Numbered from the stretch's first letter, positions 295 through 13,395 are shown. The stretch is 13,395 bases of DNA from Deinococcales bacterium (GCA_031414595.1 JANNVX010000091.1:1-13395); one strand, 5' to 3'. A program made the numbers and translations. The notes: generated by a model from the sequence alone, not told the origin.

Positions 295-2103
295 GTGAAC
301 TTAATGAAAATTTGTGTTGTACTGCTGCTGTTGTTTGCACCTATTGCCAAAGCCCAAAGCGCACCGCGCCCCCAAGTGGCGGTAACACTGGCGGGTGGCG
401 TGGCAAGGGGTTTTGCGTTCCTTGGGGCGCTCGAGGTGCTGGTCACAGAAGGTGTGCCAGTTGACCGAATTGTCGGGACATCGGCTGGGGCATTGGTTGG
501 TGGGCTGTACTCCAGTGGTTACAATTTTAAGACCATAGAAGCCATGCTCAACGAGTTGCGTTTTGTACAAGGCGATTTAATAAGAATTTTATTCCCACCA
601 ACCCAAGGGTTACTCGACCCGACAGGTTTTGAAACGGTGTATCGCGCTCTAGTGGACAACAAAAAACTCGAGCATACCTCGCCACGCCTCGCTGTGATGG
701 TCACAGAGTTGCGTCCAGCCCCACCAAAAGCGCTTCTCGAGGGCGATATTGCAAGCGCCATTCGTGCCAGCATCAGTTTACCAATTCTATTTCCAGTCCC
801 AAGTATTGATGGGGTCTACTACGCCGATGGGGGCTTACGCGACCCGTTTCCTGTCGGTGTGGCAAGGGCTTTAGGCAGCGATGTCGTCTTTGGAATTAGG
901 GCATTGGCAGAAGCTGGGGCGCAACCTGATAATTTACTCAATGCCTTGTCTTTTGTGGTCGGTGCGCTGACTGTACCTGTTGATCAGACCCAACCCGAGG
1001 CTTGGATTCGGGTGAAAACCTTTGATACCCTGTACTTTGATTTCTCGAAGGTTTCGGAGTTAATGCAGCGAGGACGCGAAACCGCACGGGCAGAACTGCC
1101 TAAAATTCTCGAGGTATTGCTTAAAAAAGGCGTACCACTAAACCCCAAAGGCGACCCACACGAAAAAAATCCAATCAATCTGGGCTGGCGTGAACGACTA
1201 GCCAAAGGGGTGCAATTAGCTCGAGCCTTACCGCCTGTTTTCACAGTTGCCCCTGCCATTGAACTCGCGCCAAGTGCTTTTGACTGGAACACCCGTCCCG
1301 CCCAACCAACCAGTTACTCGAGTTTGGGGCTAGGTTTGGATTTTACGGGTGGCGTACTCGGTAATTTTAGCTTTGGGGCTGGTTATGTCGAGCGCTTAAA
1401 CGACCCAAATGACGGTATTTTTGCCCGAGCCAGTTATGATTTTTCTAATTTAAGAATTTATGGGCTTTACGACCCCGCAAGGCGACCCGAAAGCACACCT
1501 TGGGAGATTGGTCTCGAGTACCGCGCCGAAAACATCCACAATTCGCCGTTCACCCTTAAAGCCAGTCTGGACAGTTTGGCTTTGGGATTGTCAACAGCCG
1601 CTCGACTCGAGGCTGGAACAACCATCGTCAAAGCCAATCTCGAGTTGCGCTTTGGCTATGCACCGAGCCTGCGCTTACAAACCAGTTTGGGTTTAGAAAC
1701 CAGCTTCAAGCCCTTTTTTATTCGGGCGAGGGCATTTTTAGGTTTGACCACAGGTGGAGCAGAAGGTTTTAGTCTTGGCTATCACAGTTTATTGCGAGCG
1801 TATCCCGCTAATTTTGTGGTCTCACGCCAAGCGATTATTGGCAATTTAGAATTTGGCTACCGTCTCGAGTTACCGAGTGTGGCTGGAATCATTACGGCGA
1901 GTCCGGAGTTCAGGTTGTTTTTTGATGCTGGTTGGGCATTAACCTTAGAAACCAACTCGAGCCAATTTTTGTGGGATTTGGGGATTGGCATTAACTTTCC
2001 GGGGGCTTGGTTTGGCTTTATCCCCTTTGGTTTTGGGTTGGACATGGCTGTGGGCGGCAATCAATTTCGGTTTACGGCGTACACAGTGCTTAACCTGCCT
2101 TAA
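295..2103 (+). CDS. Secreted patatin-like phospholipase fused to an Omp85-type beta-barrel (PlpD/type Vd-like)
   Basis: Signal peptide MKICVVLLLLFAPIAKA. Patatin motifs GGVARG, GTSAG, ASISLP and DGG. The C-terminal half has amphipathic beta-strands with Omp85-like motifs LRAY (compare VRGY), FFDAG and LGIG. Start is GTG 295 or ATG 304. Confidence 0.85.
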   Translation: MNLMKICVVLLLLFAPIAKAQSAPRPQVAVTLAGGVARGFAFLGALEVLVTEGVPVDRIVGTSAGALVGGLYSSGYNFKTIEAMLNELRFVQGDLIRILFPPTQGLLDPTGFETVYRALVDNKKLEHTSPRLAVMVTELRPAPPKALLEGDIASAIRASISLPILFPVPSIDGVYYADGGLRDPFPVGVARALGSDVVFGIRALAEAGAQPDNLLNALSFVVGALTVPVDQTQPEAWIRVKTFDTLYFDFSKVSELMQRGRETARAELPKILEVLLKKGVPLNPKGDPHEKNPINLGWRERLAKGVQLARALPPVFTVAPAIELAPSAFDWNTRPAQPTSYSSLGLGLDFTGGVLGNFSFGAGYVERLNDPNDGIFARASYDFSNLRIYGLYDPARRPESTPWEIGLEYRAENIHNSPFTLKASLDSLALGLSTAARLEAGTTIVKANLELRFGYAPSLRLQTSLGLETSFKPFFIRARAFLGLTTGGAEGFSLGYHSLLRAYPANFVVSRQAIIGNLEFGYRLELPSVAGIITASPEFRLFFDAGWALTLETNSSQFLWDLGIGINFPGAWFGFIPFGFGLDMAVGGNQFRFTAYTVLNLP

Positions 2104-2119
2104 AATTTCGGTTCTCGAG

Positions 2120-2128
2120 TGTTACAAT
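2120..2128 (+). promoter_or_regulatory. Extended -10 box (TGnTACAAT), probable leaderless promoter of clpS
   Basis: TG at 2120-2121 and TACAAT at 2123-2128, 6 nt before GTG 2135. No SD. Confidence 0.7.
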
Positions 2129-2134
2129 TTTCTT

Positions 2135-2431
2135 GTGAGCGAGACCCGCACCTTAACCCGAGAAACCACCAAAGTTGCCACGCCTAAATTGTGGAAAGTA
2201 ATGTTACTGAACGATGATTACACCCCAATGGATTTTGTCGTGGATGTGCTGACCAGAGTTTTTCGCAAGTCCGAAGACGAAGCGATCCAAATTATGCTAC
2301 AAGTTCATCATGCTGGGGCTGGTTTAGCGGGTGTCTACGCCTTTGAAATTGCTGAAACCAAAATCATGCAAACCGAGGACTTGGCGCGTTCGGAGGGTCA
2401 TCCGCTTCAGTGTACCCTCGAGCCAGAGTGA
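2135..2431 (+). CDS. clpS: ATP-dependent Clp protease adaptor ClpS
   Basis: Contains KVMLLNDDYTPMDFVVDVL, IMLQVHHAG, IAETK and HPLQCTLE. Start moved from 1985 (ORF track) to the in-frame GTG 2135, which removes the overlap with the patatin gene and fits the -10 box. Confidence 0.95.
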   Translation: MSETRTLTRETTKVATPKLWKVMLLNDDYTPMDFVVDVLTRVFRKSEDEAIQIMLQVHHAGAGLAGVYAFEIAETKIMQTEDLARSEGHPLQCTLEPE

Positions 2432-2505
2432 GAAAGGCGAAAGTAGAGCCTCCGAAAAGCCTGAAATTCTTAGAAATTTTCGTCAAACGCGTAAATGGAA
2501 AAACA

Positions 2506-2531
2506 GGGCGAACACGGGGGTTCGCCCCTAC
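2506..2531 (-). repeat. GTAG-type REP palindrome, copy 1
   Basis: Minus strand reads GTAG-GGGCGAAC-CCCCGT-GTTCGCCC: a GTAG foot, a perfect 8-bp stem and a 6-nt loop. Confidence 0.8.
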
Positions 2532-2556
2532 CTCACGCATTTTTCACGCCATGACT

Positions 2557-2582
2557 GTAGGGACAGACCCCTGTGTCTGTCC
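2557..2582 (+). repeat. GTAG-type REP palindrome, copy 2
   Basis: Reads GTAG-GGACAGAC-CCCTGT-GTCTGTCC: a GTAG foot, a perfect 8-bp stem and a 6-nt loop. Inverted relative to copy 1, with a 25-nt spacer. Confidence 0.8.
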
Positions 2583-2647
2583 TGTAACCAACGATAAAAT
2601 GGCATTCTTTCGGAGGCTCATAGCCCATAGCTCATCTACGAACAATG

Positions 2648-2653
2648 TAGACT
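2648..2653 (+). promoter_or_regulatory. -10 box (TAGACT), probable leaderless promoter of psuG-rodZ
   Basis: TANNNT hexamer 7 nt before GTG 2661. Confidence 0.6.
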
Positions 2654-2660
2654 AAGGCTT

Positions 2661-3566
2661 GTGAAGCATTTTATTTTTGCGCCTGAAGTCGCAACTGCCT
2701 TAGCGCAGCGTTTGCCTGTGGTGGCACTTGAAAGTACGGTTATCACCCATGGTCTCCCCTACCCTAATAATCTCGAGACCGCTAAAGATTTAGAAGCCAA
2801 AGTGCGCCTTTCAGGTGCGATTCCAGCCACGATTGCAGTGCTGGATGGGAAAATTCATGTCGGTTGCACAAGCCAGCAATTACTGCGTTTGGCTCAAGAA
2901 CCAATGGAAAAAGTGTCTTTGTGGAATTTGCCAGCAATCATGGCAAAAGGCTCGAGCGCGGGGACAACGGTTGCGACCACAGCACATTTGGCACATTTGG
3001 CAGGGATTGAAGTCTTTGCCACGGGTGGAATTGGTGGGGTGCATTTTGATGCTTTTGATGAAAGTGCCGATTTGCCCGCGCTGGCAAGGATTCCAATTGT
3101 GGTGGTTTGTGCTGGGGCAAAAAGTATTTTGAATCTTCATGCGACCATCGAACGACTCGAGACGCTGGGTGTTCCCGTCATCGGTTATGGCACGGATTCT
3201 CTACCCGCTTTCCATACCCCAAGCAGTCCGTACAGTGTGGCAGCCCGTTTGGATACACCCCAAGAAATTGCCAAAGCCCATATTGCAGCCCGTGACCTCG
3301 AGATGCGCCAAGCCATTTTGGTGGCTAATCCAATAGACCAAGGCATCGAGTTTGGTAAAGTTCAGGCGTGGGTCGAAGCGGCTAACCACGAGGCGCGTAA
3401 ACAAATGGTATCGGGGAAGCGACTGACACCGTTTTTACTTTCGGAGTTGGCGCGGTTGTCCTCTGGCGAAACAGTGCAAGTCAACGGTAGACTACTGGGC
3501 AATAACGCTAGGCTCGCGGGAGAGATTGCCGTGGCGTTAGTTGCTGTCCGACTCGAGGCGATATGA
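2661..3566 (+). CDS. psuG: Pseudouridine-5'-phosphate glycosidase (PsuG/IndA family)
   Basis: Motifs PVVALESTVITHGLPYP, GTTVATT, FATGGIGGVH, DESADL, AGAKSIL and GKRLTPFLL. Confidence 0.93.
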   Translation: MKHFIFAPEVATALAQRLPVVALESTVITHGLPYPNNLETAKDLEAKVRLSGAIPATIAVLDGKIHVGCTSQQLLRLAQEPMEKVSLWNLPAIMAKGSSAGTTVATTAHLAHLAGIEVFATGGIGGVHFDAFDESADLPALARIPIVVVCAGAKSILNLHATIERLETLGVPVIGYGTDSLPAFHTPSSPYSVAARLDTPQEIAKAHIAARDLEMRQAILVANPIDQGIEFGKVQAWVEAANHEARKQMVSGKRLTPFLLSELARLSSGETVQVNGRLLGNNARLAGEIAVALVAVRLEAI

Positions 3567-4537
3567 AAGAAGATAATTTAGTTGGTCGTTTGAACATCAC
3601 CCGCGATAACCTCGCACCCCTACTAAAAGAGGCTCGAGAAGCCAAAGGAATGACTTTAGAAGAAATTGCCGAGCGCCTTAAAGTGCGCCCAAGTTTACTC
3701 GAGCAAATCGAAGCTGGACGTTATGAATCCCTGCCAGAAATGATTTACACCCGCTCATACATTCAAAAGTTTGCCCAAATTGTCGGGCTTGCCCCAGAAC
3801 CTTTTGTGACGGCGTATGAACGAATTGCTGCCAATGCCAGTTCGCCCACCTTGGCGCGAAGTGCGGTGCGTACCGTCATCGAATCTGCGCCAGTGATTCG
3901 CCAAGAAGACATTCCACGAACCAATTATGTGCCTTGGATTCTTGGCTTTTTGGGTTTAATTATCATTGGTCTGTTGGCTTTTTTCTTAGCCCAAGGGCGA
4001 ATCCTGCCGCGCAGTAACACTTCAAATAAACCAAGCACGGTTGCCATTATCACCCCAGACCCCAGTCCAACCCAATCTGAGATGGTGCGCTTAAGTGTTT
4101 TGAGTGTACCAAGCGGCGCAACCGTGCAAATAGACAAGTACAACATTGGCACAACCCCACTCAAAGATGCGGTGGTCTCGAGCCGCCCAAACCGCGAATT
4201 GCGGGTGATTAAGGCTGGCTATAAACCGTATGTCAGCACCAAAGATTTGTTAGCCGACACCAACCTAAGTGTGACCTTGGAGCGCCTTGTCTCGAGTACA
4301 CCAATTGCAACCAGTGGCAAGGTGCAACTGGTGTACCGTGGCAGTTCTTGGACTCGGGTGCGCGATGCAAGCGGCAAAATTATCTATGAAGGACAGCCCA
4401 AACCGGGCGATAGACTCGAGTTTACACCGCCCATCGAAGTGCGCCTTGGGCAACCCAGTGTCGTCAGTGCCGTGGTTGGTGGTGTGACCCGTGAGCGTTT
4501 AGGCGGCAGCAGCCCAGTTACGGTTAAGTTGCCTTAG
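3563..4537 (+). CDS. rodZ: RodZ-like membrane protein (HTH, TM helix, PEGA, DUF4115-like C-terminus)
   Basis: N-terminal HTH LKEAREAKGMTLEEIAERLKVRPSLLEQIEAGRYESLP..YTRSYIQKFA. One TM helix (WILGFLGLIIIGLLAFFLA). PEGA-like segment SVPSGATVQID..IGTTP...KAGY. C-terminal SWTRVRDASGKIIYEG...VRLG. Lies upstream of rimO and overlaps psuG by ATGA. Confidence 0.85.
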   Translation: MKEDNLVGRLNITRDNLAPLLKEAREAKGMTLEEIAERLKVRPSLLEQIEAGRYESLPEMIYTRSYIQKFAQIVGLAPEPFVTAYERIAANASSPTLARSAVRTVIESAPVIRQEDIPRTNYVPWILGFLGLIIIGLLAFFLAQGRILPRSNTSNKPSTVAIITPDPSPTQSEMVRLSVLSVPSGATVQIDKYNIGTTPLKDAVVSSRPNRELRVIKAGYKPYVSTKDLLADTNLSVTLERLVSSTPIATSGKVQLVYRGSSWTRVRDASGKIIYEGQPKPGDRLEFTPPIEVRLGQPSVVSAVVGGVTRERLGGSSPVTVKLP

Positions 4538-4572
4538 GGCGTTTTCGTTCTAAAATTGGTTTTGTTTTACGG

Positions 4573-4613
4573 TAAGCTGGTAGCCATCGGGCTAGTAGCT
4601 CTTTTTATTGAGG
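4573..4613 (+). promoter_or_regulatory. Possible -10 box (TAAGCT) and SD (GAGG) for rimO
   Basis: TAAGCT at 4573-4578 and GAGG at 4610-4613, 7 nt before ATG 4621. Confidence 0.4.
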
Positions 4614-4620
4614 TTTTTCT

Positions 4621-6004
4621 ATGAACGTATCCGTTGCAAAAAAAGTTGGTTTTGTCAGTCTTGGTTGCCCCAAAGCCTTAGTTGATTCAGAACGAATCCT
4701 GACCCAAATTCGGGCAGAGGGTTACGAGGTCTCCGCCAGTTATGAAGATGCCGATGTGGTGGTGGTCAATACTTGCGGTTTTATCACCCCAGCCATCGAA
4801 GAAAGCTTAAGTGCAATTGGCGAAGCCTTAGAACATACCGGCAAAGTGATTGTCACGGGTTGCCTCGGTGAACGCCCAGAAACGATTCAAGCCAGACACC
4901 CCAATGTCTTATCGGTGACTGGGGCTGGCGACATTGAAGGCGTGATGAAGGCACTGCACAAAGAAATCCCACCAGACCAAAATCCGTTTACCCAGCTTTT
5001 ACCGATAGGGGTCAAACTGACGCCCAAGCACTACGCCTATGTCAAAATTGCCGAAGGCTGCAATCATACCTGTAGCTTTTGCATTATTCCCAAGCTGCGT
5101 GGTTTACAAGTCTCGAGGGACGCAAGTGAGATTTTATACGAATCGTACCGCCTTGTCTCGAGTGGCACAAAAGAACTTTTAATCATCTCCCAAGACTCGA
5201 GTGCTTATGGGGTGGATATTCGGCATCGGAAGACCGAATACCAAGGGGCAGAAGTGGTTGCCCATTTGGTGGATTTGTGCCAAAAGCTCGGTGAGCTTGG
5301 CGCTTGGGTCAGGCTGCATTATGTCTATCCATACCCGCACATCGAAAACATTGTCAAGCTGATGGCGCAAGGGAAAATCCTGCCGTACTTGGATGTGCCT
5401 TTGCAACACGCCAGTCCAAAAATTCTCAAAGCCATGCGCCGCCCGGGGGCTGGTAAACAATTAGAAACGATTTTGCGCTGGCGTGAAATCTGCCCAGAAA
5501 TAGTTTTACGCAGCACTTTTATTGTCGGGTTTCCCGGAGAAACCGAAAGTGATTTTGAAATGTTGCTCGAGTTTATCCGCCAAGCCAGACTTGACCGCGT
5601 GGGTTGCTTTACCTATTCGCCGGTAGATGAAGCCGATGCCAACAAATTAGAAAATCATGTCCCAGAAAACATTAAACTCGAGCGTTTAGAGCGCTTGATG
5701 GCAGTCCAACAAGAAATTTCTTTAGAAAAAAGCCAAGCCAAAATTGGGCGGGTACTCGAGTGTATCGTAGACGAATACAACGATGACGACGGCGATATGG
5801 CTGGCACAAAACTGATAGGGCGTTCCAAAGGTGATGCCCCTGGTATAGACGGCACAGTGATGATTGCGGCTGGTGCTTTTGCAGGGCAAATTAAAATAGG
5901 GGACTTGGTGATGGTACTGATCGAAGATGCTGACGAGTACGACCTCTACGGCGAAGTCCAGAGTTTGGTGGATTGGCAACCCAATGTGATTCGGATGCCA
6001 AGCC

Positions 6005-6015
<11 letters not shown>
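4621..6015 (+). CDS. rimO: Ribosomal protein S12 methylthiotransferase RimO
   Basis: N-terminal [12 protein letters not shown] and NTCGFI. Radical SAM motif [10 protein letters not shown], then LHYVYP and [13 protein letters not shown]-terminal TRAM domain [12 protein letters not shown]...DEYDLYG. Confidence 0.97.
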
Positions 6016-8640
<2,625 letters not shown>

Positions 8641-8794
8641 CTAAAAGCAGAGAAATGAAAAAAAGTGCTATACCCAGCCTCGGTATAAATTAACCCATAC
8701 AATAACCAAAGTGTGACCACATTGGGTAGATAATTACTTAAGGTTCTCGAGCAAACGGTGTGCAAAATATCGCAGCATAACTACTTGGGAGGCA

Positions 8795-8800
8795 TACAAT
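8795..8800 (+). promoter_or_regulatory. Possible -10 box (TACAAT) for the lipoprotein gene
   Basis: TACAAT ends 26 nt before GTG 8827. Confidence 0.4.
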
Positions 8801-8826
8801 AAAAGTCTTAGACCCTATTTTTCGAG

Positions 8827-10794
8827 GTGAACGTGCAGCGTATATTCTTAATCATATTTTTTCTAATGGCGTGTCAACCGCCAAATCCGCCACCTGTACA
8901 AGCTCCAAGCCTTAGCTCGGATTTGCATCCAAAAGTTCTACTGAATTCGCTCGAGAAAAACCGTTTACAACAAAAATTAGTCGCCCCAGATGCAGCGACG
9001 ACACGATTTAAGGAAATGGTAGACAGAGCCGTGAGTGGTGCGAATATTTACGGCTATGAGGGTTGGTGGTCAGCTTTATTTGGACAATTAACTGGCGAAG
9101 CACGGTACTGCACCGATGCCGTGACTCGAGGCGAAATATGGCTGACCAGTGAAGCCACACGCACCAGTGCAGGGCAACGCGCCAGTGTGGCTGGAGACAG
9201 TTACCTCGAGATTGGTGAAATTGTTGGAAACCTGATGCTGACTTATGATTTTTGTTTTGATACACTCAGCCTCGTACAGCGCCTAAATTGGCGCAATTAC
9301 GCTAAACAAGCTGTTTGGAATGTTTGGAATCATACCCAAGCCAATTGGGGGGCAAGTAGCAACGCTTGGAAAGGGACGCTTGGGGCGCATCCGTGGTCTG
9401 GCTGGAGTGTCAATGACCCTGTGAACAATTATTACTATTCATTTTTGCAAGCCACGATGCTACTGGCACTCGCAGCCGGCGACGAAGACCCTGAAATCAT
9501 GGCGTACCGAGCATTTTTTCGCACCACCAAAATACAAAACGAACTTGTCCCAATCTTTGCTGCTCAGCTTAAAGGTGGCGGCTCGAGAGAAGGCACAGGG
9601 TACGGCACAGCAATGAAGAATTTATTTCGTTTGTATTATTTCTGGGAACGCTCGACTGGTGAACGACTTGCCGATTTAACCCCTCATGCCTTTGACACCA
9701 TGGCGTACACACTTCATGCGATTACACCCAGCAACGACCGTCTTGCTCCGATAGGCGATCATGCCAGGGACGAAACAGCCCGGTTTTTTGATTATCACCG
9801 TGAATTGCTGCTGACTTTAAGTGCCTTGTACCCAAATACCGCTCTGGCGGCTCGAGTCAATGCCGAATTACCAAACATGACGACTCGAGTTGGTGTGAAC
9901 GATCTGGCGATAGGGCGGATGCGCTACAATTACAATTTTATTTGGGATTTCTTGTACGAAAACACCAGCAGTACGTCCCCAATCAATCTGAACACGGTTT
10001 ATCACGCATCAGGCACGGGTCATGTTTTCGCCCGTTCAGATTGGAATTCAGATGCCACTTGGCTCGGATTCATGGCAGGGGCGTACACCCAATCCCACGC
10101 CCATCAGGATGGTTTATCGGTACTGTTCTTTAAGAACCAATGGCTAGTGCATGACCTAAACATGAACTTACCCAGTGGGATCGAACAAGGCATGAATATG
10201 CACGCCAGTTTGCAACTCGGAGCATTTACACCTTCTGAGCGTCCAGACTCGAGCGCGGCATTGGTGGCATTGCAAAACACCCCAGAATTACTGTACCTGA
10301 ACGCCAATCAAGGTACGTTGTACAGCAATCAAAATGTCAAACTCGAGCGGCAAGTGATTTGGCTTAAACCCAATGTACTGGTGCTGTGCGACCAAGGCGA
10401 ATTGGCAAATAGTAACGCGGCACAAACCGCAACTTTGCGCTTCCCTTTGCCTACTCAAGCCAGTATTTCAGGCAATTCTGCTAGCAGTGCAGGTTTACAA
10501 ATTTTCTGGCAAGCTGGCTTGAACGCCACTCAAACCGCCGTTGGTTCTGGGTTTAGGCTCGAGTTAAGCCAAACACAAGTTGGTATGCAACGAATTCAGA
10601 GCGTACTGAGCATGGCAGGAGCAGTCTCGAGCGTGGATTTTACAAGCACTACACAAGTGAACCTCAGTGATGGGCGCAGGGTTCAAGTGGATTGTGGTGC
10701 GAATGGTTTTGTGGCGTTTTCTGGCTCGAGCGGACAAGAAACTTCTCGCACCGTTTTGACTCGAGCCGTACAAGTTATTCCATTGGAGAAATGA
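8827..10794 (+). CDS. Lipoprotein of the heparinase II/III-like polysaccharide lyase superfamily
   Basis: Lipobox LMA-C followed by a Pro-rich linker. Helical N-terminal domain with NNYY, GGSREGTGYG and PIGD. C-terminal RSDW..ATW..F and SHAHQD.......WLVHD motifs. Substrate cannot be deduced. Confidence 0.75.
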   Translation: MNVQRIFLIIFFLMACQPPNPPPVQAPSLSSDLHPKVLLNSLEKNRLQQKLVAPDAATTRFKEMVDRAVSGANIYGYEGWWSALFGQLTGEARYCTDAVTRGEIWLTSEATRTSAGQRASVAGDSYLEIGEIVGNLMLTYDFCFDTLSLVQRLNWRNYAKQAVWNVWNHTQANWGASSNAWKGTLGAHPWSGWSVNDPVNNYYYSFLQATMLLALAAGDEDPEIMAYRAFFRTTKIQNELVPIFAAQLKGGGSREGTGYGTAMKNLFRLYYFWERSTGERLADLTPHAFDTMAYTLHAITPSNDRLAPIGDHARDETARFFDYHRELLLTLSALYPNTALAARVNAELPNMTTRVGVNDLAIGRMRYNYNFIWDFLYENTSSTSPINLNTVYHASGTGHVFARSDWNSDATWLGFMAGAYTQSHAHQDGLSVLFFKNQWLVHDLNMNLPSGIEQGMNMHASLQLGAFTPSERPDSSAALVALQNTPELLYLNANQGTLYSNQNVKLERQVIWLKPNVLVLCDQGELANSNAAQTATLRFPLPTQASISGNSASSAGLQIFWQAGLNATQTAVGSGFRLELSQTQVGMQRIQSVLSMAGAVSSVDFTSTTQVNLSDGRRVQVDCGANGFVAFSGSSGQETSRTVLTRAVQVIPLEK

Positions 10795-10797
10795 CCT

Positions 10798-11184
10798 ATG
10801 CAGCGCCTATCTTCGCCAATGCCACTTGTTTTGTACGAAACTGATATTGCCTTGTACTTCGGACAACTGGTGATTGTTTACGGGCAATACCAGCGCCTAT
10901 CTTTACGCCAAAGCGCCCGCTCAGATTCGCCTTTGGTGCTAACCGAAAAAGCCAAGCTAACACTCAAAGATGGCAAGATCATCTTTATCTTTCCTTTGTG
11001 GCACGAGAAATCTCAGCGCCCACCAGAAGAACTCGAGCGTTACAACAACCAAGCTGTCAAAGCCAGTGGGCTGCTGCTGTTCGAGCAAGGCAATGACCCT
11101 AATGCACCACAGGCGGCACGAAGGGTTGGTCCAGCCTTGTTGCTCGGATCGCTTGAATTGAATCCTTTCCCACATCAAGAATAG
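10798..11184 (+). CDS. Hypothetical protein
   Basis: 128-aa ORF starting 3 nt after the upstream stop on the same strand and filling the gap. It has a globular pattern (GQLVIVYGQY, LTLKDG, RPPEELERY, VKASG). Exact start uncertain. Confidence 0.65.
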   Translation: MQRLSSPMPLVLYETDIALYFGQLVIVYGQYQRLSLRQSARSDSPLVLTEKAKLTLKDGKIIFIFPLWHEKSQRPPEELERYNNQAVKASGLLLFEQGNDPNAPQAARRVGPALLLGSLELNPFPHQE

Positions 11185-11228
11185 CTTCAAAACCAACACG
11201 GGAAATCTGAAACATAAGGAGACCAACG

Positions 11229-11684
11229 ATGGGAGTATTAACCACAGCCTACTCGATTCCACCTGAAGTAATGCGAAAAATTCAGGGTTATAAAAAACAC
11301 TTGGAAAAGATTTTTCAAGCACAAAAAGACTGGAGGTTTGAAAGCTACGGTTTTGACAAAAGCTGGGAAGAAAAAATCCGCATTATTGGCAAATGCTATC
11401 CGCGCACACGCAACCGGTTAAATCATCAAAATTGTTGGAAATATCCCGATTATGATGTTTGGGTGGTCAAGCCAAAAGAGGTCAAGTTTGTGGCTGGCGA
11501 TATTGCCCGTGCAAGCTCGGAAAGCCTAAAAAAATGGGGTTTGAAAGGTGGTGTAAGAGATTATTACGGCGAAATGATTCCTGAAGAACTTTATGATTAT
11601 TACATTGAGAACATCGAAAACTTCAAAGCGTTTTTACAAAAAGCTGCGACTGACGGGAATTATCTGATATTCGCAACAGGTTAA
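11229..11684 (+). CDS. DUF1877/YfbM-like protein, paralog 1
   Basis: SD AAGGAG. Pattern MG....Y, FDKSW, P.EVK.VA..I and FKAFLQKAA..G..LIF resembles YfbM/DUF1877. Confidence 0.7.
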   Translation: MGVLTTAYSIPPEVMRKIQGYKKHLEKIFQAQKDWRFESYGFDKSWEEKIRIIGKCYPRTRNRLNHQNCWKYPDYDVWVVKPKEVKFVAGDIARASSESLKKWGLKGGVRDYYGEMIPEELYDYYIENIENFKAFLQKAATDGNYLIFATG

Positions 11685-11694
11685 GGAGAAGATT

Positions 11695-12177
11695 ATGGGT
11701 GTAATGACAAATGCGTATTCACTCGAGCCTAAGATAATGAAAAAGGTACGAGCCGATAACGAAAATTTAGCTTTTATTCTTGGCGATTGCGAAGACGAAA
11801 GCCAGCGTTGGAAAGTCGAAAGTTACGATTTTGACAAAGGAATTGAAACCTACATTACTATTATGCGTGAAGCTGGTTTTGTAAAAACAGCCAAAAACAT
11901 TGACAGCGAATGGGCAGATTTAGACCTCTTTGATTATAACGGCAATGACCTTTGGGTTATCCCGCCATCACAAGTCAAAGCAATGGTTAAAGAACTTGAA
12001 TCCGCAACCATTGAAGGGATAAAAGCCAAAAATATCGGCGGGCAAGTCACAGACCGTCGAGGCACTGTTCTGGTTGACAGTCTATTTGAAAGCTACCTGA
12101 GCGATATTGACGGTATCAAAGCGTTTTTTAGAGAAGCCATGGAAAAAGGGCATTACCTACTTTTTGCGGAGGTATAA
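11695..12177 (+). CDS. DUF1877/YfbM-like protein, paralog 2
   Basis: SD AAGGAG. Aligns end to end with paralog 1 (MGVMTNAYS, ESYDFDK, DLWVIPPSQVK, IKAFFREA..KGHYLLFA). Confidence 0.7.
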   Translation: MGVMTNAYSLEPKIMKKVRADNENLAFILGDCEDESQRWKVESYDFDKGIETYITIMREAGFVKTAKNIDSEWADLDLFDYNGNDLWVIPPSQVKAMVKELESATIEGIKAKNIGGQVTDRRGTVLVDSLFESYLSDIDGIKAFFREAMEKGHYLLFAEV

Positions 12178-12180
12178 GTC

Positions 12181-13230
12181 ATGAGTATGTATTATCGGTG
12201 CTACGGTTATTTTCGGTTTGAAAACGAATCAGAAGCCAAAAAAAATTATGACATTTTGATCACTCGAGAAGATAATCGGTTTCATTATTTCCCCGAAGAA
12301 CTTAAGCTGGCAGGGGACACGATTACATTTAAGGTAGATGGTAACTTTTCCTCTTATACCACTTGCGAAAAAACCAACGATATTATTAGCGAAGTTGCCG
12401 AAAATGCAAAGGTTGGTATCGTTAAAATAGACGAAGGTGACGGCGAAGATGCAATGTGGAGTTGGCGAACGTACTCGGTTTCAGGCACAGAAGTCTACCG
12501 AAACCACACCAAACCACAAAAGTCGTATCGGTTCAAAGGCGAACTCGAGTTTGCCGACGAAGAAGCGGCTCGTGCAGCTTGCAAAATGCTTTTAACCGAT
12601 ACTACAAATTCGATATTTACCAAGTTTTCAGCCAATCAAATTGTTTTTGATGGCGACAAAAGACAGATTGTTTTTGATGGCAAATACTTACGCATAGACG
12701 CGCATTGCGGCGGCAATGTTGCTATTTTCAAGAAAACCAAGCGGCTTTTACAAAAAATCCAAGCCCAAGCAGTAAGTGGCAATCTCGAGGCTGCCGAAAC
12801 CTTTGTACTGCGCTTCATTCCCAATAGAAGCAAAGATTCTTCGGATTGGGTCAATAATATGAACAGCCAAATTTTTTATCATTACACTGGTAGTTTGACT
12901 TTCGGCACAACCGAAGAAGCCGAAAATGCGTATCAGAAACTCATCAGCCATGAAAAAAGCGTCTTCAGAATCAATGCCAAAAATTCATTTCCGCTTTACG
13001 TAACCCACACAAAACTTGTTTTTGATGACTTCGGCAACTGCCACCGAACATTGTTTAATGACACCGAAGATTTAATCAAAGAATTTGCTGCCATTGCCAC
13101 CAAAGGAAAAATCGAAGGCGCGTTTAGCAATCTCGAGACGATGAATAGTTATTTGGTTTTTCGCATTGTACCTTCAAAAGTGCAAGCATGGAATAGATTT
13201 GTAGAAAAGAGGAAAGAAAAACAGAAATGA
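12181..13230 (+). CDS. Hypothetical protein with three internal repeats of about 110-115 aa
   Basis: SD GGAGG. Repeats begin at aa 5, 116 and 233 with the pattern Y...G...F....eA..a...L. Confidence 0.85.
   Translation: MSMYYRCYGYFRFENESEAKKNYDILITREDNRFHYFPEELKLAGDTITFKVDGNFSSYTTCEKTNDIISEVAENAKVGIVKIDEGDGEDAMWSWRTYSVSGTEVYRNHTKPQKSYRFKGELEFADEEAARAACKMLLTDTTNSIFTKFSANQIVFDGDKRQIVFDGKYLRIDAHCGGNVAIFKKTKRLLQKIQAQAVSGNLEAAETFVLRFIPNRSKDSSDWVNNMNSQIFYHYTGSLTFGTTEEAENAYQKLISHEKSVFRINAKNSFPLYVTHTKLVFDDFGNCHRTLFNDTEDLIKEFAAIATKGKIEGAFSNLETMNSYLVFRIVPSKVQAWNRFVEKRKEKQK
12640..12681 (+). repeat. 15-bp direct repeat with 27-bp period (QIVFDG twice)
   Basis: ATTGTTTTTGATGGC at 12640-12654 and 12667-12681. 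Confidence 0.9.
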
Positions 13231-13259
13231 GCATTTACTACTCATTCAACGGTCAACTA
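13227..13259 (+). pseudogene. 5' stub of a gene paralogous to the repeat protein, interrupted by the IS630-like element
   Basis: ATGA overlap with the upstream stop. Reads MSIYYSFNGQL (compare MSMYYRCYGYF and IFYHYTGSL), then runs into IS sequence and stops at 13286. Confidence 0.65.
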
Positions 13260-13395
13260 AGTGCTTCCCGTGTAACAATCAGATAATGACACCTCCAATT
13301 GCTGTCAACGCTACCATCAAAGCAGCCCGCAATTCAGTCAGTGAGTCATAACAACGACGCGGCATCAAAAATCCTTTGATTTTACGCCAGATATT
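13260..13395 (-). mobile_element. Right end of an IS630-family insertion sequence
   Basis: The transposase tail on the minus strand is followed by a short end ...TTACACGGGAAGCACT and then TA (13258-13259), the canonical IS630 target. Confidence 0.75.
13279..13395 (-). CDS. C-terminal fragment of an IS630-family transposase (5' part outside window)
   Basis: Reads NIWRKIKGFLMPRRCYDSLTELRAALMVALTAIGGVII*, matching the W..lK.....r.y.s..eL segment that follows the catalytic Glu in IS630/DDE_3 transposases. Confidence 0.75.
   Translation of the reverse strand, partial: NIWRKIKGFLMPRRCYDSLTELRAALMVALTAIGGVII

Follow-up and report, generated by a model that had tools for sequence, protein, structure and literature searches.

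CTCGAG is a highly iterated, HIP1-like genome word in an uncultured family of Deinococcales

The window analysed here is a stretch of 13,395 nucleotides from a Deinococcales bacterium (GCA_031414595.1, JANNVX010000091.1), the entire contig C91 of the source assembly. Its gene content is ordinary, with a patatin-like lipase, a pseudouridine-glycosidase-type (indigoidine synthase A-like) protein, a RodZ-like protein, a radical-SAM methylthiotransferase, an AlkA-type glycosylase, an NAD-dependent DNA ligase (LigA) and several open reading frames (ORFs) without a Pfam family. Scattered through all of this is the palindrome CTCGAG, in exactly 65 copies spanning positions 430 to 13137 (Table 1). The initial annotation, made from the sequence alone, had counted about 65 copies against about 3 expected; the zero-order expectation is indeed about 3, an excess of ~20-fold, and relative to 200 dinucleotide-preserving shuffles of the window (mean 1.66 copies, standard deviation 1.41, maximum 8, none of the 200 reaching 65) the excess is ~39-fold. 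As had also been described, the sites occur in genes on both strands and in intergenic DNA: 62 of the 65 lie inside 11 ORFs, distributed over the three frames as 41, 9 and 12, and 3 lie between genes. The individual cases cited there, encoding Leu-Glu at 430, Arg at 1220 and Ser at 1317, and two of the intergenic sites, proved correct in every instance. All four bases flank the core on either side (left, A 24, T 21, G 13, C 7; right, T 25, C 17, A 13, G 10), confirming that the unit is a 6-mer.

The excess extends throughout the source genome, G000, an assembly of 4,488,778 bases in 120 contigs (47.2% GC, 94% complete, 0.5% contaminated). CTCGAG occurs there 23,235 times, at 5.2 sites per kb or about one per 190 bp, which gives an observed/expected (O/E) ratio of 23.9 against base composition. 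It is the commonest of the 4,096 hexamers, three times as frequent as the second, which overlaps it, and each of 1,620 5-kb windows holds at least 4 copies. A highest-order Markov expectation gives an O/E of 1.16, a value that is uninformative because the 5-mers themselves already carry CTCGAG. The word has no extended consensus: every one of the 16 flank pairs occurs, no 8-mer accounts for as much as a quarter of the sites, and the CTC and GAG half-sites are enriched at spacing 0 only, with no enrichment of spaced half-sites, CTC-N(1-12)-GAG, in G000. One 8-mer, CCTCGAGG, is ~4-fold rarer in G000 than the other flank pairs predict (178 sites); the same C..G flank pair is not depleted in G149, a more distant genome described below (82 of 875 sites). 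Sequence common beyond the core, as in dispersed repeats of the repetitive extragenic palindrome or miniature inverted-repeat transposable element (MITE) type, was not seen among the G000 sites. An artefact or mobile repeat (a library adapter, faulty assembly or binning, or a small mobile element present in many copies) has negligible probability and is already refuted. Although the window makes up one entire contig of 13.4 kb out of 120 and has repeats at its ends, all 18 other family assemblies, one of them a single contig, show an equal density, the flanks are unique, and in-frame sites lie at orthologous positions inside conserved genes.

It is also very improbable that CTCGAG itself is under no force and arises as a by-product of codon, dipeptide or TCGA usage, or of restriction removing other palindromes. 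Some observations do favour such an origin: CTC and GAG are favoured codons in high-GC relatives, in which a few sites per kb can therefore arise; samples from family f4 have an O/E of ~5 with 44-55% of Leu-Glu pairs written as CTCGAG; and G000 strongly avoids other palindromes. At 47% GC, however, CTC makes up 15.5% of the Leu codons and GAG 32.6% of the Glu codons of G000, yet 59.8% of its Leu-Glu pairs (11,892 of 19,884) are encoded as CTCGAG. In our own ORF calls, on which all coding and non-coding statistics are based (3,774 ORFs, 86% of G000), synonymous-codon shuffling within genes left 1,935 ± 28 sites against 19,901 observed, a ~10-fold difference, and shuffling of codon order left 893. 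Codon-pair bias alone is thus insufficient, as the initial annotation had argued. Density is 5.14 per kb in ORFs and 5.41 per kb outside them, a non-coding/coding ratio of 1.05, and the 3,343 sites in non-coding DNA compare with 117 expected, an enrichment of 28-fold. Nor does the TCGA 4-mer account for the excess, since 69% of the TCGA in G000 falls within CTCGAG, TCGA elsewhere is under-represented, and other palindromes built on it are nearly absent (ATCGAT 89, GTCGAC 26 and TTCGAA 29 sites). G150, a genome of equal GC from the same order, is without the excess. For G000 a compositional by-product is already refuted, and the controls that had been proposed at the outset (codon and dipeptide usage, the TCGA core, restriction to one contig and artefact) all leave the excess in place.

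The effect of the word on proteins is large. Sites in G000 ORFs divide among the frames as 11,924, 3,849 and 4,128, and in addition to the Leu-Glu pairs of the first frame they occupy 3,849 of 8,312 frame-1 opportunities (46.3% of [TASP]-Arg-[VADEG] triplets) and 4,128 of 11,147 frame-2 opportunities (37.0% of x-Ser-[SR] triplets). No dipeptide of the G000 proteome exceeds expectation by more than Leu-Glu, at an O/E of 2.22 compared with 0.98 for Glu-Leu, and the Leu-Glu surplus of ~11,000 pairs equals the number encoded as CTCGAG. The force behind the word overrides codon choice and has added ~11,000 Leu-Glu pairs to the proteome.

Site positions are conserved beyond what sequence similarity alone provides. 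Genes of the window were mapped codon by codon to the orthologous DNA of the 18 other family genomes, with eight duplicate loci dropped, for a total of 320 site comparisons. Conservation of CTCGAG was above that of background hexamers in each of four divergence classes: 63 of 71 (0.89, against 0.60) at nucleotide identities of at least 85%, 58 of 84 (0.69, against 0.27) at 75-85%, 21 of 81 (0.26, against 0.14) at 68-75%, and 43 of 84 (0.51, against 0.11) below 68%, a class made up mostly of LigA compared across genera. In five genomes of genus g5, whose LigA genes are ~65% identical in nucleotide sequence, 7-9 of 12-14 aligned sites lie at identical codon positions. Turnover is evident as well, as every genome has private sites and 18-78% of a relative's sites are unshared. 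The one-mismatch neighbours of the word are not depleted: transition neighbours have an O/E of 1.07-1.23 (CTTGAG/CTCAAG 1.07, TTCGAG/CTCGAA 1.23) and transversion neighbours 0.17-0.69, with a median hexamer at 0.83. We also considered whether sites are written by multi-base events. At identities of at least 85%, 15 of 22 gained or lost hexamers had two or more differences, compared with 35% of background hexamers, but the flanks were themselves 1.2-1.3 times more diverged, so that the excess largely represents gains and losses in variable regions, and no claim is made.

Within coding DNA, the occupancy of opportunities rises with distance from the nearest other site, from 0.315 at 10-20 bp through 0.443 (20-30 bp), 0.489 (30-50 bp) and 0.54 (50-75 bp) to 0.58-0.61 (75-300 bp), while occupancy permuted within gene and frame is flat at 0.48-0.53 (standard deviation 0.005-0.016). 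Neighbouring sites therefore interfere below ~50 bp. The sites are spread more evenly than their opportunities, and this local saturation of CTCGAG, measured in coding DNA, is a new result. Inter-site gaps are otherwise near exponential (mean 191, coefficient of variation 0.99), and no helical phasing (~10.5 bp) was found between neighbouring sites in G000, where what scatter remains is that of Poisson noise. The arrangement CTCGAG-N-CTCGAG (start-to-start gap 7) occurs 101 times in G000 and stands out as a local spike among the gap lengths. Stretches poor in CTCGAG are confined to two islands in this genome, 37.5 kb in total at ~1.6 sites per kb, both of them low-GC variable regions that look like horizontally acquired DNA (Table 1).

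Table 1. Coordinates of CTCGAG sites and associated features. Positions without a contig name refer to the window.
Feature	Position	Strand	Remarks
All CTCGAG starts	430, 667, 736, 1108, 1220, 1317, 1513, 1606, 1639, 1864, 1956, 2114, 2417, 2772, 2951, 3156, 3297, 3552, 3633, 3698, 4177, 4291, 4415, 5112, 5157, 5196, 5566, 5677, 5755, 6107, 6308, 6431, 6700, 6784, 6904, 7048, 7201, 7374, 7579, 7594, 7783, 7894, 8056, 8205, 8485, 8593, 8746, 8950, 9125, 9205, 9582, 9851, 9884, 10248, 10342, 10558, 10626, 10725, 10760, 11032, 11722, 12263, 12544, 12784, 13132		
Frame-0 site, CTC-GAG (Leu-Glu)	430..435	+	In patatin-like ORF 295-2103
Frame-1 site, nCT-CGA-Gnn (Arg codon CGA)	1220..1225	+	In patatin-like ORF 295-2103
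Frame-2 site, nnC-TCG-AGn (Ser-Ser/Arg)	1317..1322	+	In patatin-like ORF 295-2103
Intergenic site	2114..2119	.	
Intergenic site	2417..2422	.	Just 5' of the ~176-bp repeat
Intergenic site	8746..8751	.	Between divergent LigA gene and ORF 8827-10794
NAD-dependent DNA ligase (LigA) gene	6622..8640	-	14 sites, 6.9/kb
Radical-SAM methylthiotransferase-type gene	4621..6015	+	6 sites; 15 genomes aligned for site conservation
ORFs without Pfam match	8827-10794, 10798-11184, 11229-11684, 12181-13230		655, 128, 151 and 349 amino acids
Lower-GC window end, three ORFs	11229..13230	+	40-41% GC; site density lower, 0-3.8/kb
Contig-end repeat, ~140 bp	1-140, 13255-13395		
Intergenic repeat, ~176 bp	2444-2619		
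CTCGAG-poor islands	C46:27000-43500; C14:19500-40500		Mid-sized genes at 29-43% GC in one; a 3,646-amino-acid ORF in the other
Locus L080, methyltransferase beside split XhoI-family nuclease gene	G031:C1:1092686-1096915		Sister-family genome

The gene responsible for the word was said to lie outside the window, and this agrees with the gene content, which offers no repair functions beyond LigA and an unremarkable AlkA-type glycosylase. The latter, an HhH-GPD gene, was considered as a T:G mismatch glycosylase and rejected, being of the AlkA 3-methyladenine type (best Protein Data Bank match 2yg8, E 1e-27). Four window ORFs had no Pfam match, and the two that were tested had no NCBIfam match. 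The last three ORFs are low in GC and poor in CTCGAG, and may therefore be more recent acquisitions. Two repeats were also observed. That at both contig ends has copies of 98-100% identity at or near the ends of ~14 other contigs (including C1, C4, C8, C16, C19, C40, C41, C65, C90, C92, C101, C105 and C118), and is probably the terminus of a multi-copy insertion element that breaks the assembly. The intergenic repeat has many copies at 85-93% identity in G000 (C8, C92) and in the congeners G001, G005 and G007, and looks like a MITE.

That the genome is non-cyanobacterial, as had been stated, is borne out by its closest LigA loci (83-98% identity), which belong to Deinococcales/Deinococcota. 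The family of G000, here f1, is uncultured and comprises five genera, and all 19 of its genomes have the trait at 4.3-6.8 sites per kb, one of them a single contig of 5.1 Mb. In a survey of 326 genomes of the phylum that were at least 80% complete (G295 was among the rows, and no claim is based on it), the f1 genomes, 16 of 16, again had 4.3-6.8 sites per kb. Genus g7 of family f3 (104 species/genomes) has 26-1,372 sites per genome of 1.9-6.7 Mb, nearly all below 0.25 per kb; this strong depletion places g7 at the other end of the range seen in the order, and the one g7 locus sampled was 66% GC. In genus g9 (2.1-2.4 Mb) the word is about as frequent as its reversal. Intermediate genera have 2-3.5 sites per kb (g13, g26, g27) or 1.5-2.8 per kb (g32, g39, g54, g38, g14, g6), and in G227, a g32 genome of 46% GC, the O/E is 12 and 63% of Leu-Glu pairs are occupied. 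Assemblies of g13, g26, g27 and g32 are 87-100% complete. For high-GC genera, sampled at 3-50 kb per genome, part of the weaker excess may be codon usage. We found no published report of CTCGAG over-abundance in Deinococcota in the full-text literature, a coverage that leaves out supplements and subscription journals.

A pair of genomes from genus g23 of family f3 differs sharply in the trait. G149 (121 kb sampled, 51% GC) has 7.2 sites per kb and an O/E of 28, and in a first 24-kb sample 86% of its Leu-Glu pairs were CTCGAG, whereas G150 (90 kb sampled, 50% GC) has 0.28 per kb, an O/E of 1.2 and 6% of Leu-Glu. LigA was not found in the G149 assembly, so AspRS was used to place this genome. 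AspRS identity is 74% between G149 and G150, compared with 63-67% between G149 and f1 genomes (G000 among them), G042 and g7; G149 and G150 are therefore true relatives. Their AspRS genes contain 16 copies of CTCGAG in G149 and 1 in G150, compared with 0 in G040 (g7) and 10-13 in three f1 genomes. Judged against G150 and the outgroups, most of the G149 sites are derived, and reaching the word often took 2-4 substitutions and altered the encoded amino acids, so that the word was either built up massively and independently in G149 or lost wholesale by its sister. The trait has been gained or lost among Deinococcales lineages, being present in the whole of f1 and in G149 but not in G150.

The genomes that carry the word avoid other palindromes to an unusual degree. 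G000 avoids nearly every other 6-mer palindrome (GGGCCC 0, TGCGCA 2, CGATCG 3 and GGCGCC 3 sites), has GGCC at 152 sites (O/E 0.01) and GATC at an O/E of 0.14, and carries ~25 DNA methyltransferase genes; its avoidance is among the heaviest restriction-avoidance signatures known to us. In G149, 14 GC-rich palindromes stand at 0 where ~31 are expected, with GGCC and GATC not avoided, and the palindrome landscape of G150 is normal. Across 14 sampled genomes, the O/E of CTCGAG and that of 31 other GC-rich palindromes have a Spearman correlation of -0.78, which is a trend and not a test because the genomes are related and some samples are small. The CTCGAG trait thus accompanies an extreme scarcity of other GC-rich palindromes, such as a heavy restriction-modification load leaves behind. 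A mechanistic link between the excess of CTCGAG and the lack of GAGCTC, its half-site-swapped counterpart, was considered and rejected, as GAGCTC (6 sites) is avoided together with GGGCTC (20) and GTGCTC (16), all at an O/E of 0.01 in G000, as part of a wider avoidance of GDGCHC. The same avoidance is seen in G149 and is absent in G150, and it points to a separate restriction system of that specificity. In a scan of a viral collection for three close copies of CTCGAG we found at least 80 loci, the 25 densest all on contigs of ~58-70% GC with much GGCC. None of the 19 f1 genomes has an HK97-type major capsid gene scoring above the Pfam cut-off, the explanation being either a scarcity of prophages in this restriction-rich family or their loss in binning.

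Because density is equal in coding and non-coding DNA, all frames are used, conservation is above background and the proteome has been rewritten, we conclude that a lineage-wide, DNA-level force makes and keeps the exact 6-mer, blind to frame, strand and coding status. The initial annotation had proposed just such a lineage-wide force creating or maintaining CTCGAG and had likened it to the cyanobacterial palindrome HIP1; both parts stand, and the comparison is apt, while the candidate that it favoured, a methyltransferase acting with repair, is not supported by the comparisons described below. The other two options that it offered, a DNA-binding protein and an uptake or recombination signal, are both retained among the readings that follow. 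CTCGAG is a HIP-type genome word, a highly iterated palindrome of the HIP1 kind, with an excess above ~15-fold, independence of frame, strand and ORF, and conservation beyond background. Like HIP1, it is a short GC-containing palindrome tens of times above expectation, it lies within and between genes in all frames, its positions are conserved between genomes, it is clade-wide with sporadic exceptions among close relatives, and its hosts avoid many other palindromes. HIP1 proper is excluded, given that CGATCG occurs only 3 times in G000 and the lineage is Deinococcales. The differences are that CTCGAG is another word, a 6-mer and not an 8-mer, in another phylum, that it visibly rewrites amino-acid sequence, and that DmtA and DmtC are known for HIP1 whereas no f1-wide methyltransferase was found for CTCGAG. 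It is also two- to ten-fold denser, at ~5,200 sites per Mb compared with 300-2,700 per Mb in Table 2 of Elhai (2015, PMC4390886).

In the sections of that article dealing with HIP1, GCGATCGC, and its alternates, the alternate HIPs are tied to methyltransferases of matching specificity with which they co-occur, and a methyl-directed repair ratchet is put forward that saturates with density (Elhai, 2015, PMC4390886). Applied here, a CTCGAG-specific and probably orphan methyltransferase would mark the word, a methyl-directed or mismatch-specific repair step would keep the mutations that create it, and the word would accumulate as a by-product until saturated. We regard this as distinctly unlikely, even though the ~25 methyltransferase genes of G000, the heavy restriction-avoidance signature that accompanies the trait in two independent lineages, and a sporadic gain or loss (G149 and G150) like that of mobile restriction-modification genes all speak for it. 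The initial annotation had suggested an orphan methyltransferase of XhoI/PaeR7I specificity coupled to repair. Such systems share the recognition word CTCGAG, and real XhoI-family nuclease genes are present in sister families of f1. XhoI/PaeR7I-type restriction-modification systems normally deplete their own site, however, and here the site is enriched. The XhoI-family endonuclease (PF04555) was found in 3 of 22 sister-family genomes and in 0 of 19 f1 genomes. In the three sister-family genomes the nuclease adjoins a methyltransferase, which is beta-class in G021 and G033 and TaqI-like gamma-class in G031. At the G031 locus an intact TaqI-like methyltransferase stands beside a nuclease gene split into two ORFs by stops; the locus resembles a CTCGAG restriction system in decay, with the methylase left as an orphan. 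Neither of these methyltransferases tracks the trait across the phylum: orthologs of the beta type occur in 38 of 326 genomes, mostly g9 and f4 (f1 0 of 16, f3 0 of 117), and of the gamma type in 17 of 326 (g27 3 of 3, g13 6 of 24, g40 3 of 3, and others; a 27% match only in f1, and f3 0 of 117). Orthologs of both are absent from f1 and from G149.

Other methyltransferases fare no better as a shared determinant. Across five methyltransferase Pfam classes, no ortholog was common to the six f1 genomes compared, whose assemblies are 91-94% complete. No C5 methyltransferase was found in G010 and no N6_N4 methyltransferase in G013, and neither of the two gamma-class enzymes of G006 matches anything in G000. 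MT-A70 was present in only one of five genomes. D12 is the sole class found in all six, yet its members form two small orthogroups and unrelated singletons, and identity between the G000 copy and the rest does not exceed 37%, over 54 residues. A TaqI/Eco57I-like methyltransferase of 559 amino acids on contig C89 of G000, which resembles the solved adenine methyltransferases 8cxz/7lni and M.BseCI (7qw5), has homologs in only 3 of 18 f1 relatives. As no methyltransferase ortholog is shared by the six f1 genomes compared, the METHYLTRANSFERASE idea, a single inherited orphan methyltransferase, is unsupported. Different f1 genomes may have unrelated enzymes of the same CTCGAG specificity, because G000 alone has ~25 methyltransferase genes. 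The repair side of the model can be compared with Dcm/Vsr, where a repair bias likewise raises the frequency of a methylated palindrome. In enterobacteria that bias has a small effect, needs Vsr and depletes T-containing neighbours. In f1, Vsr endonuclease was found in 0 of 19 genomes, and the transition neighbours of CTCGAG are undepleted, unlike the prediction for very-short-patch repair.

It is unlikely, though less so than the ratchet, that CTCGAG is an architectural site, bound by a lineage-specific nucleoid or chromosome-organising protein and kept at roughly uniform density by selection. Such a site would be consistent with positions conserved well above background, with coverage so uniform that no 5-kb window lacks several copies, with genes and spacers that are equally dense, and with sites more evenly spaced than their opportunities. 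For HIP1, conservation has been shown and a periodicity of 10-90 kb reported, and selection and a role in nucleoid structure are argued in the relevant parts of Xu et al. (2018, PMC5861425). Against it are the lack of helical phasing between neighbouring sites and the lack of a candidate protein, and it leaves the link with heavy palindrome avoidance unexplained.

The reading that we favour, tentatively and by analogy with known systems, is that CTCGAG may be a self-DNA watermark for natural transformation or recombination. The palindrome would be read in the course of natural transformation by a dimeric, sequence-specific factor, whether on uptake, as a site that stimulates recombination, or both. 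Uptake or recombination would favour DNA rich in CTCGAG, so that alleles with the word would displace alleles without it. One site per short stretch would suffice, which would lead to saturation, and newly acquired DNA would be poor in CTCGAG at first and fill with time. Cultured members of Deinococcota are naturally competent, and this is one reason for favouring a watermark; others are the saturation, the lag of acquired DNA and the association with a heavy restriction load. The analogy with HIP1 is a further reason, as HIP1 sites, above all when methylated, raise natural transformation by up to >100-fold in Synechococcus PCC 7002 (Kamoku and Nielsen, 2024, bioRxiv 10.1101/2024.09.10.611283). 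HIP1 has also been proposed as an uptake watermark (Rodriguez-Cruz et al., 2026, PMC13756078), in an article that profiles gene families against HIP1 with phylogenetic correction and in which a term search retrieved neither Deinococcus nor Thermus nor hexamers. Finally, uptake sequences likewise rewrite proteomes, with which they are described as co-evolving (Findlay and Redfield, 2009, PMC2817400).

CTCGAG resembles the uptake signal sequences (USS) of Pasteurellaceae and the DNA uptake sequences (DUS) of Neisseriaceae in being a short word spread genome-wide across a whole family (19 of 19 f1 genomes) that biases the peptide content of genes, here with Leu-Glu at more than twice its expectation, in being poorer in recently acquired DNA, and in that one copy per stretch seems sufficient. 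The hosts of USS and DUS are also rich in restriction-modification systems. Known uptake sequences are, however, non-palindromic 9-12-mers that occur at ~1 per kb and are enriched between genes or in terminators, whereas CTCGAG is a palindromic 6-mer at 5 per kb, equal in genes and spacers.

That difference weighs against a watermark, and so do several other points. The density of CTCGAG is ~5 times that of known uptake sequences, with non-coding DNA at only 1.05 times the coding density. A 6-mer is low in information; random DNA of G000 composition already has ~0.2 sites per kb, and discrimination would therefore depend on density. An architectural binding site would predict the saturation and the conservation of positions just as well. 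The short-range interference seen in coding DNA could reflect the cost of mRNA hairpins between close copies, and intergenic site pairs are without obvious depletion at 10-50 bp. Saturation is predicted as well by the repair model in the part of Elhai (2015, PMC4390886) that concerns it. The effect of HIP1 on transformation is reported as methylation-dependent (10.1101/2024.09.10.611283), yet the comparison of five methyltransferase classes gave no enzyme common to the six f1 genomes compared.

A bolder form of the watermark is more doubtful than the watermark itself. In this form, CTCGAG would be an ultra-dense palindromic signal for the uptake or recombination of self-DNA. Two lineages or more, f1 and G149 among them, would have acquired its reader independently or by horizontal transfer, and the signal would thereafter have altered tens of thousands of positions, some of them with an effect on proteins, in the time that separates two congeneric species.

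HIP1 has gone unexplained for three decades and is, to our knowledge, known only from cyanobacteria. CTCGAG is a second, independent case of its kind, from a different phylum and based on a different word. It is denser, its effect on proteins can be measured, and it shows that the HIP phenomenon is general. The bias that it imposes on codon and amino-acid statistics is so large that gene prediction, binning and horizontal-transfer tests should allow for it, and an unmodified f1 genome would be cut by XhoI-type enzymes into ~190-bp pieces. The distribution of the word provides a comparative handle on its cause, with a whole family that has the trait, genera in which it is graded, and the congeners G149 and G150. 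If a self-DNA signal of this kind can indeed be acquired by new lineages, then G149 and G150 would be a natural experiment that identifies the reader, and, together with HIP1, watermarks would be a general, convergent strategy of restriction-rich, naturally transformable bacteria.

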